A stretch of 64,000 nt of DNA from Alloascoidea hylecoeti (taxonomy: Eukaryota). The translations under genes and the position numbers were made by a program. Of the stretch, positions 22,562-60,103 are shown piece by piece; within the stretch, counting starts at the first letter, position 1; every line of letters begins with the position of its first letter. The stretch covers positions 186,001-250,000 of the forward strand of contig BCKZ01000004.1 of assembly GCA_001600815.1 (NCBI GenBank). Direction: 5' to 3'. The notes under the pieces were generated by a model. It saw only the letters and a program-made list of their open reading frames with translations. It was not told the origin of the DNA and made no database searches.

Positions 22562-24085
22562 TTATTGATAATGATGCAATATTGTCCTCCTTATAGCATT
22601 ATCAGTCCAGGCTTTTATAAACATCATTGTAACATTAACCCGAAGTATTTCTACTTGTGTTCTAAGACATGGAAATGCAGTATGAAATGCCCATAGTGTA
22701 CAGGACCAAATACTACTATAATGAAAAAAAAAATTGGCTATTAGATTCAAATAAATATTATGTTCTAAAAAGCACTTACACATTTCCACAAATTTCCAAT
22801 AAGCCTATAATTTGACGGGCATGCCGTACTTGATCATTAGTAGTTAAAGCACAATTTTCTTTAGTTAATCCAGGTTTTTTTTTATCCAATAAAATATGTG
22901 CAGTATGATAGCCCATAGTTGAGATATAACTTGTAATTCGGTCAAAAGTAAGCGAAAACCAAAAAAATCTAACTTCAGGACGATAACGGGTAAAAGTTGG
23001 TGGTGATATTGAATATGGTAACTTATCAGACCAATCATTTAATTTTTTAACTAATGATTTATATGTGTTACCATCTTTGTCCTCTTTATAATCCTCATAA
23101 GTTAAAACAGTTTGTTGATTGACGAAATTATTAACTAGTGCTAATAGATAGAAGACACGACAATAAAACCATGCTTTATAATATTTTCGAGGAGAAGTAG
23201 TATCTACTTCAGCTATCACACCCCATCTATTGATATGAAAATTATTAGTCAAAACGTTTCAAATTCAACTTTGGTATACTATACTTACTCGCTTGGATCC
23301 CACAGTGTTGGAGACTTGTGCAATATAGAATAAAATAAATCCGTAAAGACCACTAGCCAGAAACAACTCCTTGTTATTACAGAATCAAAAGGAGCACTAG
23401 GCTGACTACTATTGGCATCCACTTTATAAGTGTTCATAATTTCACGAAGAAGAGCTATAGAACTGGAACTGTGTTTGGTAGATTCCGTAAAAGTTTCGAA
23501 CTGACTTAAAAGAACAGAAACAATTAGACATTTATAAAGACATTTATCTTTAGATTCAAATTCTTTCTGTAACATTTTGAGAGTTCTGTAATAGTAGCGC
23601 ATTGGCAAATCGGCAGGATAGCGAAAGTCGATTTTGTGGGCATGTACTGCACCACAGCAGCATATCGCGGATAATAAGATACCTGATTTATCCATTATGG
23701 CCAATTTTGGGACGACTTCTTGAAAGAAACTTAAAGAGAAAGGGAAATCTAACCAATTGGCAAAAAATTCAGTATAAACATTCATGAGGTTCTCTTCAAG
23801 TGGATTCATTGTTTGAAGTTCACTGGTGGTCCCTGCAGATGTTTTGAACAATATTTCGGCAGACTCATCCAAAGCCTCCTCAAAACTATACTGCTGCACT
23901 ATATCTTCTGGGTCAGGTTTTGGCAAGGTTAGGTGATAATCAGCGAAAGCAGCCTTGACCTGGGCAACAGTTGGAAAGTTCAAGACGGGGTAGCCTACTG
24001 CAGCAGGTTCGCCTGGAGGGGGGGTGACTTGGTGGAATTCCTCGTATTTGGACTCAAAATACGCATACATATACTTAAACCCCAT
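22562..24085 (-). CDS. Fungal TF-associated (middle-homology-type) domain protein without Zn cluster, copy A; exons complement(23289..24085, 22780..23226, 22562..22715)
   Basis: Three ORF-track pieces are joined in frame by GTAAGT..TAG introns 23227..23288 and 22716..22779. Motifs FANWLDFPF..FFQEVVPKLA, LLSAICCCGAVH, SCFWLVVFTDL, YHTAHILL. Confidence 0.75.
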
Positions 24086-24617
24086 TTCAATTAATTAATA
24101 AATTAGGATCTGATTAGTTGAAAATATTAAACTGGGGGATTTTGATGGATCATTGGCGGTTTTTATAGTATGACTACTCAAAGTTATGCACGACATTCTA
24201 GTTATTTCCGTATTCAGTCAAATCTTTCTTTTTTCTTTATTACTCCCAAACAAACTGTTTTTCCTCGTAATTTTTATATCTATTGAGACTTCGTAAAATT
24301 TATAGCCAATAGCAATGGAGAAATTTTTTATTGTGTTAACAGATCAAAGATTACATTTTTATATATCACTAATAATTCACCATCTTCAACAACAATCGTA
24401 TGAAATAACAATAGCATTGAAATACTTAATGAATGGGACCTGATGAAATAATAAAAATTAAAGATTTAACTGTCAATATATTTTCATGAGATTCTTTGGC
24501 TCTTTTCTCAGTATTAATATAACCTTGTGCTTCCGTGCACACTGTGGTTAACAATAGTCGCAAGACATAGTCATGTTCAATTAATTCTTCATCTTTTAAA
24601 TATTCATCAATGGCGAG

Positions 24618-25013
24618 TGTTGGATATATATTACACTCTTAGAACAGTTCACTAAAGAGTCGATTGGCTTTTTGGCGCAACTGGGAGAACAGGCACTTTG
24701 AACTTTAACATGGTAGCGGCGCCGCCACGAGAGGCATCAGGTTCGAGTCCGCCGTAGGACGGTAGTTTACATCAGTCTAGTTGAGGCTTAGTAGGGTAAC
24801 GCATAAATGGCCCGAAAGTAAAATGTCCGAGTCAGTCTGCAAGAAGTCCGAAACCCGCAAGATCACGGGGGTGAGCAGATATGGCGATTAGTAAAGTGAC
24901 CTGCCTAAGGTTGGGGGGTGTGTTGGATATATATTACACTCTTAGAACAGTTCACTAAAGAGTCGATTGGCTTTTTGGCGCAACTGGGAGAACAGGCACT
25001 TTGAACTTTAACA
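24618..25013 (+). mobile_element. Complete non-autonomous miniature LTR retrotransposon (TRIM-like), 396 bp
   Basis: Two identical 93-bp LTRs (24618..24710, 24921..25013), each TGTT...AACA. TSD GCGAG at 24613-24617 and 25014-25018. PBS TGGTAGCGGCGC directly after the 5' LTR. G-rich PPT AAGGTTGGGGGGTG directly before the 3' LTR. 210-bp non-coding interior. Confidence 0.95.
24625..24750 (+). promoter_or_regulatory. Putative Pol III type-2 promoter within the TRIM (TATA, A box, B box)
   Basis: TATATAT at 24625-24631; TGGCGCAACTGG at 24673-24684 fits A-box TRGCNNARYNGG; GGTTCGAGTCC at 24740-24750 fits B-box GGTTCGANTCC; 55 nt lie between the boxes. Confidence 0.65.
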
Positions 25014-25815
25014 GCGAGATTTTCACTATTACCAGTATACACTTTGTCATCTGTAATATATTTGATCAGGCCCATTTATCTTAAAGTTGACCTAATTCCA
25101 AATTTCCAATTTTGTAAAGATGAAATATTATTTGTTAATCTATGCAATGTTTTACCTACATCCATATTGCTTGTTGTTGAAGTAGTGCCAGCGCCGCTAC
25201 CATGTTGATTTATCATTTCAGCTAGCTTTGCAATATCTTCTGAATTCATATCTTGAATAATATCTAAATTAATGTCTGAGGATCTTCACTACTAAATCTA
25301 CAATATGTAGAATCAATGAATAACAAACTTATATTTCCTCTTGTTTTTATCGTCTCTCCGCTTCTTACAAAAAGTGGGAATCCACCTATATATCTAATAA
25401 AATAATTCAACTCTATTAGAAAACATGAGATATATGTATATTGAGTAACCAATCAAATCAAGTAAACAATATAATAATAATCACTCATATCTTCTAATAC
25501 AAAAAATTATATATTTTAAAAAATAATTAAATCTTGTGTTTTAAATGAAGAAGATTTAGTAAAATGGTTAGTTGTGATTAAAAGATGTAAAAAAAATTAT
25601 GAACAAAATTTAAATTAACATCAAAAGAGGGAACAGTTCTAATACTGATACTATTGCTACTACGACATAAATACTTACTTTTAAGAGTAACAGATAGAAG
25701 AAAAAATTACAAAGAAATATTAACATAATAATAAGAAAAATATCATCTTAATGAAAGAATGGCTTTTAAAAAAACTATGTAGCGAACGAAAGAGAGAAAG
25801 TAAAAGAAATCAAAA

Positions 25816-27213
25816 TCAAATACGAGCGGGAGCGTTATTCGGCTCTGGTCGTATTCCAATATCACATTCTCTACTCATAACTTCAAATATAGAAAGAGCT
25901 TCAGACTTTTCTTTCCTAGATCTAAGACATGGAGCAGCAATACTGTATACCCATAGTGTGCAAGACCATACAGCACTAAATGACAAAAAAATTAGCTTAA
26001 ATCCAAATAAATATTGCAGAAAAAGAACTTACCGATCTTGACAAGATTTCAATATCCCCATAATTTCTCGAGCGTGTTTTAATTGTTCATCAGCGTTAGG
26101 CATAGATGTTAATTTAGGTTGTCTTCTAGCTAGTAAAATATGGGCGGCGTGGAAAGCAATCCACATTATATGTTGTTGTTTTTCACAACAGCATATAATA
26201 GGAAAAACCAAACCTTTAGTTATTTCTATAAAAATCACTGGTCTTAATGTTCCTGGTAAAGTAGCAGCCCATTCCTCTATCTTATCAAACAATTGAACAT
26301 GAGTAGCGTCATCTATTTTTAGTTCTTCTCTAGTGGGAACATTTCGTTGATTAACTAAATTATTAGCGAGTCCTAATAGATAAAAGATATGAAAATAAAA
26401 CCAAGGTGTATCTCTGTCAGGAATGATATTATCTACACCAGACTCTGGACCCCATCTATGAATGTTGAATAAGATTGTCAGTCAAAAAGTTTCAAGTTCA
26501 ACTTTAGTATGCTATACTTACTCTGTTGGACTCCACAGAGTTATAACGCTGTTCCTTAAAGAAACAAATAAGTCTGAAAAAACGAGAGGCCAGAAACAAT
26601 ACCTTGTTATCTGTGAATCAAACGGGTAGGCAGCATCCCTACTACTCGCATAAAATGAAGGAGTGTTTTTAATTTCATGAAGTAAAGATAATGAAGTAGG
26701 AAAATGTGAAGTATGTTCAATGATAGGGTCAAATATTATTGTTGATAAATTTAAAAGAACACTAACAATCAAGCATCTGTGCAGGCATCTATCTGGTTTC
26801 ACTAATTCCTCATTCAACATTGATGTAGTAGTGTTCAGAAAAGTTAATGCGAAATCTTGTGGATAACAAGAGGAGTCAGATCTGTGCAAATATACCGCGC
26901 CACAGGTTTTTATTGCGGATAATATGAGGCCTGTATTATCGTAAAGTGCTACACTGGGCAATACTTCCTTAAAAAAAAGTAGACAGAAGGGGATATCCAT
27001 CCATTTTGAAAAGTTATTAACATAAGCTTCAACGACTTTTACTGCCAGCGGTTCCGTGATCTCATGATCTATATGCATCTCTCTTGGAAGATGTTCTTTG
27101 GCAAAAAATTGCACACACTCAATCAAAGTTTCCTGACGACTTTCATCAGGTAGGTATAGTGCCGCGTAGCTTGGCTTTTTTGCCTGAGTTGATGATTGTG
27201 GTTCTATAGACAT
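25816..27213 (-). CDS. Zn-cluster-less fungal TF-domain protein, copy B; exons complement(26522..27213, 26033..26455, 25816..25975)
   Basis: Introns 26456..26521 and 25976..26032 (GTAAGT..TAG) sit at the same positions and phases as in copy A. The spliced frame is open. Shared motifs WMDIPF, YPFDSQITRYCFW, AFHAAHILL, VWSCTLW. Confidence 0.75.
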
Positions 27214-60012: not shown

Positions 60013-60103
60013 TGTTAAAGTTCAAAGTGCCTGTTCTCCCAGTTGCGCCAAAAAGCCAATCGACTCTTTAGTGAACTGTTCCAAGAGTGTAATATATCCA
60101 ACA
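60013..60103 (-). mobile_element. Solo LTR of the TRIM family
   Basis: Reverse complement of the 93-bp LTR with one substitution and loss of one TA unit (91 bp). Flanked by TSD CATTT (60008-60012, 60104-60108). Confidence 0.95.

Follow-up and report, generated by a model that had tools for sequence, protein, structure and literature searches.

Which RNA polymerase copies a retrotransposon that is only 396 bp long and carries tRNA-gene-like promoter motifs? This question is raised by an element at positions 24618-25013 (+) of the 64-kb window (the whole stretch of DNA analysed, 64,000 nucleotides). Sequence reading and a repeat search over the 64-kb window showed that the element has an LTR-interior-LTR layout, and one solo LTR lies further along the same stretch. 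The following features define the element and its solitary relative:

24613-24617 (+): left target-site duplication, GCGAG, with the same letters repeated at 25014-25018
24618-24710 (+): 5' LTR, 93 bp, with TG...CA ends (TGTTGG...TTTAACA), identical to 24921-25013 in 93 of 93 letters
24711-24920 (+): interior, 210 bp, the segment between the two LTRs
24711-24722 (+): primer-binding site of the initiator-tRNA-Met type, adjoining the 5' LTR, with a TGGTAGCG core and up to 12-16 nt long
24907-24920 (+): G-rich polypurine-type tract, AAGGTTGGGGGGTG, abutting the 3' LTR
24921-25013 (+): 3' LTR, 93 bp, with the same letters as the 5' LTR and no B box 3' of it
25014-25018 (+): right target-site duplication, GCGAG, matching the left copy
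60013-60103 (-): solo LTR, 91 bp, with AAATG duplications at both flanks

The first-pass annotation had described a mini LTR element, and the identical LTRs, the 5-bp duplication, the primer site and the polypurine tract confirmed it. We take the TGGTAGCG at 24711 to be a primer site of the initiator-tRNA type, as in Ty1 and Ty3. No coding capacity was found in the 396-bp element (stops occur throughout the six frames, and the longest open stretch is 35 codons). The G+C content of the element is 47%, compared to 28.7% for the 64-kb window. The element combines terminal repeats, a GCGAG duplication with a corresponding empty site (see below), a primer site, a polypurine tract, a length below approximately 1 kb and the lack of coding sequence; it is a non-autonomous miniature LTR retrotransposon (TRIM) in an AT-rich yeast. 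It depends on an autonomous partner, not seen here, that acts in trans, primes on initiator tRNA and makes 5-bp duplications. The solo LTR at 60013-60103 differs from the element LTRs by a TA run that is 2 nt shorter and by one substitution.

The large open reading frames of the window have the sequence features of ordinary ascomycete-yeast genes. There are 21 ORFs of at least 250 aa, 14 of which were scanned against Pfam: 11 harboured cellular domains, three had no match, and none of the 14 harboured a retrotransposon protein domain. The element interrupts an ORF-like stretch (24086-25249, -), which reads as 57 codons, one stop and approximately 82 further codons when the element is removed in silico. 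This stretch lies upstream of a 266-codon ORF (23285-24085, -), which is paralogous to the neighbouring ORF 26518-27213 (-), with approximately 70% DNA likeness over 361 nt; neither of the two had a Pfam match at E 0.001.

Next to the anatomy of the single copy, the family was analysed using contigs from four public DNA runs (two from one organism and two from wood-decay metagenomes) aligned to positions 24300-25300. A contig joining 24609 to 25013, which corresponds to the empty site, was found in all four runs. The flanks of this empty-site copy differed from the locus in 7 of 113 and 12 of 93 letters (6-13%), and there was a 2-letter indel at the site. The empty-site contigs are a diverged allele or a paralogue of the locus, and the flank divergence points to strong heterozygosity, a hybrid genome or a paralogue. 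Contigs that matched the interior with zero differences had a depth of 142.7 in run X1, 719.6 in X2 and 184.6 in X5, compared to 7.9, 21.1 and 8.84 in the respective unique flanks (approximately 18, 34 and 21 depth-equivalents). The number of contigs aligned to the region was 229, 252 and 186 in X1, X2 and X5 respectively, mostly on the LTRs. Among them, 180, 215 and 140 fitted both LTR positions, indicating that most LTRs are solo or part of other elements. Depth over the LTR bins totals thousands, a figure that is not a copy number. The family is young, abundant and recently mobile.

Some contigs with loose ends at 24715 (X1 and X2) read through the LTR, then TGGT and then an A-rich sequence that differs from the interior of the element (30 letters visible); they may represent another element family or an autonomous partner with the same LTR. 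Approximately 170 bp to the right of the element, at 25187-25206 (-), there is an LTR-end plus primer-site junction that matches the one in the element (16 letters exact, 20 of 22 overall); it may be what remains of another short-LTR family that used this primer site, in the opposite orientation. Depth over 25184-25285 in X1 was 2.6-6.7 times that of the unique flank, indicating that the right flank is itself a low-copy repeat; there was no second copy of the 25184-25290 repeat in the 64-kb window.

The motifs on which the question of the polymerase turns are the following:

24625-24631 (+): TATATAT, 7 nt inside the LTR edge, at approximately -29 to -23 of a putative start near 24654
24654-24673 (+): proposed R, a terminal redundancy of at most 20 nt that would begin at the putative start and ends in T5
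24669-24673 (+): T5 run abutting the A box, where read-through would be needed if Pol III transcribes the element
24673-24684 (+), also 24976-24987: A-box motif TGGCGCAACTGG, 12 letters, in the form of tRNA positions 8-19 including position 17
24740-24750 (+): B-box motif GGTTCGAGTCC, 11 of 11 consensus letters, with flanks that lack T-stem complementarity
24972-24976 (+): T5 run within the 3' LTR, the putative Pol III stop

All of the motifs reported in the first-pass annotation (TATATAT at 24625, both T5 runs, the A box and the B box) were recovered where it had placed them. The distance from the start of the TATA element to the start of the A box is 48 nt, as had been reported, and the gap between the A and the B box is 55 nt. 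The description of the former as a consensus A box needed qualification. It holds for the form that covers tRNA positions 8-19 and includes position 17, but the 11-letter textbook string is not fitted. The pattern TRGCNNANNGG had six matches in the window (4.06 expected), and 24673-24684 was not among them because of one extra D-loop letter. When the LTR plus interior was shuffled 200,000 times with dinucleotides preserved, a flexible A-box pattern turned up in 27,877 cases (14%). The A box alone is weak evidence and is not significant.

The B box is rarer. Its consensus (GGTTCGANTCC) had one match in the 64-kb window on both strands (0.05 expected), and at least one match was present in 5 of 100 shuffles of the window. 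Of 200,000 shuffles of the LTR plus interior, 37 had the consensus in sense orientation. The claim that a B box follows only the 5' LTR was borne out, since this single B box of the window lies downstream of the 5' LTR and there is none after the 3' LTR or after the solo LTR. The solo LTR has kept T5 and the A box, and has no B box nearby. When the two motifs were considered together on the sense strand (A box first, 30-95 nt between them), 95 of 200,000 shuffles had the pair with a relaxed B box and two of 200,000 had it with the consensus form. The pair of A and B motifs is well beyond chance for one element; with approximately 250,000 windows scanned, a 1-in-100,000 coincidence somewhere is expected about once.

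A further argument had been drawn from the T-run-free span between the two T5 runs. Its factual part was correct (no run of T4 or longer in the 298-nt body), but the conclusion was not, as such runs were also missing in 11,432 of 20,000 shuffles of the body (57%), which contains 22% T. Among host windows of the same 298-nt length, 242 of 5,098 were free of T4 or longer runs. Base composition accounts for the missing runs, and the T-run-free body was dropped as evidence for Pol III.

The A box, T5 and the B box had no listed variant (a share of at least 5%, or a contig), and variation was near zero elsewhere too. The lack of variation in the boxes reflects a recent burst only, and with copies so alike, conservation carries no information. 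Variant letters at 24957 and 24960, in the 3' LTR equivalent of the proposed R, accounted for 4-7% of the depth. Diverged copies were represented by two kinds of contigs. Over 24678-24885, a 191-letter contig of a diverged interior copy (X2 and X5) showed 10-11 substitutions together with 17 gap letters; its listed changes are at 24723, 24725, 24733 and 24762, none of them inside 24740-24750, in a list that does not show the places of the gap letters, and the copy is not taken as proof that the B box is kept. A diverged LTR subfamily (contigs with loose ends at 24670 in X1, X2 and X5) was alignable from T5 and the A box onward and had five differences within the 30 letters preceding T5/A box.

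Based on these motifs, we give a probability of approximately 0.45 to the reading that the RNA of the element is made by RNA polymerase III via an internal promoter of the tRNA-gene type. TFIIIC bound at the A and B boxes would position TFIIIB on TATATAT, which lies 7 nt inside the LTR. Judging from the position of the A box, transcription would start near 24654. U3 would then span 24618-24653 (36 nt, TATA element included), and U5, carrying the A box, would span 24674-24710; after U5 would come the primer site and, 17-21 nt further on, the B box. The polymerase would leak through the first T5, approximately 16 nt after the start, and would stop in part at the matching T5 of the 3' LTR (24972-24976). 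The product (24654-24976) would be an uncapped RNA of 323 nt, and its two ends would share a repeat of no more than 20 nt for strand transfer. The first-pass annotation had predicted an RNA of approximately 320 nt with a terminal redundancy of approximately 20 nt, and the geometry agrees with it (323 nt and at most 20 nt, near the 18 bp of Cassandra). As the B box lies outside the LTR, firing would be confined to the 5' LTRs of complete elements, and solo and 3' LTRs would be silent. An internal promoter would also allow U3 to shrink to approximately 36 nt and in this way account for an LTR as unusually short as 93 bp.

Yeast tRNA genes have their start site approximately 18-20 nt upstream of the A box and a TATA-like element near -30. 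The 55-nt gap between the boxes and the TATA element 48 nt before the A box match this geometry. The awkward step of the Pol III reading is the first T5, which would abort part of the transcripts approximately 16 nt after the start. Passages of PMC9278858 report that S. cerevisiae Pol III in vitro shows no detectable release at T4, intermediate release at T5 and efficient release at T6. With intermediate release, one T5 could be both leaky and used, at a cost. A T4 at 25020 and further T-runs soon after would meet those polymerases that pass the second T5. An autonomous partner sharing both the LTR and the leader would make the Pol III reading hard to hold.

Passages of PMC9278858 on hairpin-assisted Pol III termination prompted us to consider whether a hairpin found only in the 3' LTR transcript might boost release at the second T5. 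This candidate was rejected: 24921-24976 folds at -5.4 kcal/mol, a stability matched by 163 of 200 shuffles. The proposed 323-nt RNA was not unusually stable either (z -1.13; 11 of 100 shuffles fold as well), and folding z values of its sub-regions ranged from -0.32 to +0.80.

Likeness to a tRNA was not detected beyond the boxes. ARAGORN found no tRNA genes in the 64-kb window. Rfam gave no matches for the whole window at the gathering threshold and none for 24550-25080 at E up to 10. Around the boxes, stem pairs counted by eye were 2 of 5 for the T-stem and 2 of 4 for the D-stem. The cloverleaf or tRNA-related body that characterises a tRNA gene or a tRNA-derived SINE is missing here. A perfect B box lacking a T-stem would fit a site read by TFIIIC at the DNA level, and would equally fit a coincidence. 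Searches for relatives outside the host gave chance matches only. The last 19 letters of the LTR, searched for exact matches in a metagenome collection of 241-million records, matched three loci, all in GC-rich bacterial coding DNA; exact hits of this length in so large a collection need checking. The LTR/primer-site junction had four matches in genome contigs, all of them chance bacterial matches, and none in viral contigs.

The default for LTR elements is Pol II, and an ordinary TRIM transcribed by Pol II is a realistic reading that we hold to be less probable. The boxes would then be a coincidence, or the non-functional remnant of a tRNA-derived sequence that was acquired long ago. TATATAT would serve the 5' LTR as a TATA box and the 3' LTR as a polyadenylation efficiency element, 3'-end signals would be provided by the A-rich stretch together with T5, and the same R would result. 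Indeed, TATATA, A-rich and T-rich letters are the usual promoter and 3'-end signals of yeast Pol II. The high frequency of the A box alone in shuffles, the lack of a tRNA-like fold and of any Rfam match at E up to 10, and the base composition that explains the T-run-free body are all in line with this reading. However, it leaves to chance an 11/11 B box on the sense strand (37 in 200,000 shuffles) and a correctly spaced pair (2-95 in 200,000, depending on the B-box pattern). Moreover, the 7 nt of LTR before the TATA element leave no room inside for upstream activating sites; under a Pol II promoter, activator sites would need to be located downstream or in flanking host DNA.

The B-box-like letters could have another role in an element transcribed by Pol II, namely to extend a multipartite primer site by a segment for pairing with the T-arm of the primer tRNA. 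T-arms are near-palindromic, so that the complement of a T-arm resembles a B box, and the motif begins 17-21 nt past the primer site. There is a precedent in Ty1, where, according to passages of PMC4974528 and PMC3592414, segments located 3' of the primer site show complementarity to both the T arm and the D arm of initiator tRNA; they help in packaging the primer and in initiation, with gaps of up to 28 nt between one segment and the next. We nevertheless consider this role improbable, as the motif is a perfect B-box consensus on the sense strand, and an exact complement of an initiator T-loop, which has A at positions 54 and 60, would read differently and need bulges to pair. Very improbable, and the least likely of the readings considered here, is a B box that recruits TFIIIC without promoting transcription (an 'extra TFIIIC' site), so as to mark full copies as landing pads for a Pol III-targeting integrase or to act as a chromatin boundary. 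In its favour stands only the isolated perfect B box, and Ty1/Ty3-type elements target Pol III-bound DNA. However, there are no tRNAs in the 64 kb, so neither of the two insertions in the window is near a tRNA gene and the family does not look Pol III-targeted; in addition, the aligned contigs contained no nested insertions.

Taking up again the reading in which Pol III copies the element, we propose, slightly more tentatively than Pol III transcription as such, that this may be the first budding-yeast LTR retrotransposon copied by Pol III, with its A box in U5, its B box in the leader and transcription limited to complete elements, so that hundreds of solo LTRs would stay silent. The first-pass annotation had regarded an LTR/SINE-like hybrid with a tRNA-type promoter as novel. 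This view is outdated, as passages of PMC10886601 describe tRNA-type hybrids of this kind (Helenus, 2024). Our literature search retrieved no Pol III LTR element from budding yeasts or other ascomycetes and no split promoter. The concept is known already; new would be a promoter split across U5, the primer site and the leader, together with the budding-yeast host.

If the Pol III reading is true, the element represents a third, independent route to the lifestyle of TRIMs with a Pol III promoter (TRIMp3), in a culturable yeast open to genetics. From a yeast example it could be learned how a Ty-like machine packages and reverse-transcribes a Pol III RNA that has neither cap nor poly(A) tail. A promoter divided in this way would keep 3' and solo LTRs from firing, which is a general problem of LTR elements, and would account for the shrinkage of the LTR to 93 bp. 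The family also matters for genome annotation, as genes in the host yeast are disrupted or flanked by hundreds of its short LTR copies.

Compared to known systems, the yeast element shares with Ty1/Ty3-type elements an initiator-tRNA primer site at or next to the LTR, a 5-bp duplication and TG...CA ends. Ty1/Ty3-type elements are 5-6 kb long, are transcribed by Pol II and have LTRs of a few hundred bp, whereas the yeast mini-element carries no gag or pol. Passages of PMC4974528 also describe multipartite primer sites downstream of the main one in Ty1. In its size class, non-coding nature, dependence on a partner and solo LTRs, the yeast element resembles the TRIM/SMART elements transcribed by Pol II ('TRIMp2'), from which it differs in that those elements do not have Pol III boxes. 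The smallest LTR element reported measures 292 bp (PMC3281118).

The closest comparison is with TRIMp3 elements. Passages of Kojima 2024 (PMC10886601) list three groups of TRIMs with a Pol III promoter: Cassandra (5S), Helenus (tRNA-type) and Ajax (5S). In the same passages, transcript evidence is given for Cassandra only, while Helenus and Ajax are unvalidated. At the motif level, the yeast element shows Pol III promoter elements in sense orientation and at a workable spacing; it would belong to this class if Pol III transcribes it. According to the same source, Helenus occurs in Pucciniales, a few Agaricomycetes, six animal phyla and Selaginella, and Ajax, of the 5S type, in nemerteans; the Helenus and Ajax TRIMs with Pol III boxes measure 311-1263 bp (PMC10886601). 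Table 1 of that work lists no ascomycete for Helenus, and the words 'Ascomycota' and 'Candida' are absent from its text; its supplements (family list, Table S1) could name taxa beyond Table 1.

The yeast element resembles Helenus, as portrayed in those passages, in being a non-coding mini LTR element with a primer site, a polypurine tract, A and B boxes in sense orientation and many solo LTRs. Its 5-bp duplications are like those of fungal Helenus families, and its 396 bp fall within 311-1263 bp. However, Helenus as described there carries the whole tRNA-like unit inside the LTR, often detected by tRNA finders, whereas the yeast element has only the A box in the LTR, its B box lies past the primer site and there is no detectable tRNA-likeness. 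The feature that defines Helenus, a tRNA-derived sequence with both boxes inside the LTR, was not found in it. Priming differs as well: the same passages have most fungal Helenus elements prime on the anticodon loop, while the yeast element primes on the 3' end of the tRNA. The feature common to Cassandra and Ajax, a 5S rRNA-derived sequence in the LTR, was not found either, there being no Rfam match of any family. Cassandra further differs in being a plant element of 565-860 bp with a 5S-derived promoter wholly inside the LTR. According to passages of PMC10886601, Cassandra is transcribed from a start in its 5' LTR to a stop in its 3' LTR, leaving an 18-bp terminal repeat. The yeast element would resemble Cassandra in these respects, with an internal Pol III promoter and a proposed terminal repeat of at most 20 nt, compared to the 18 bp given there.
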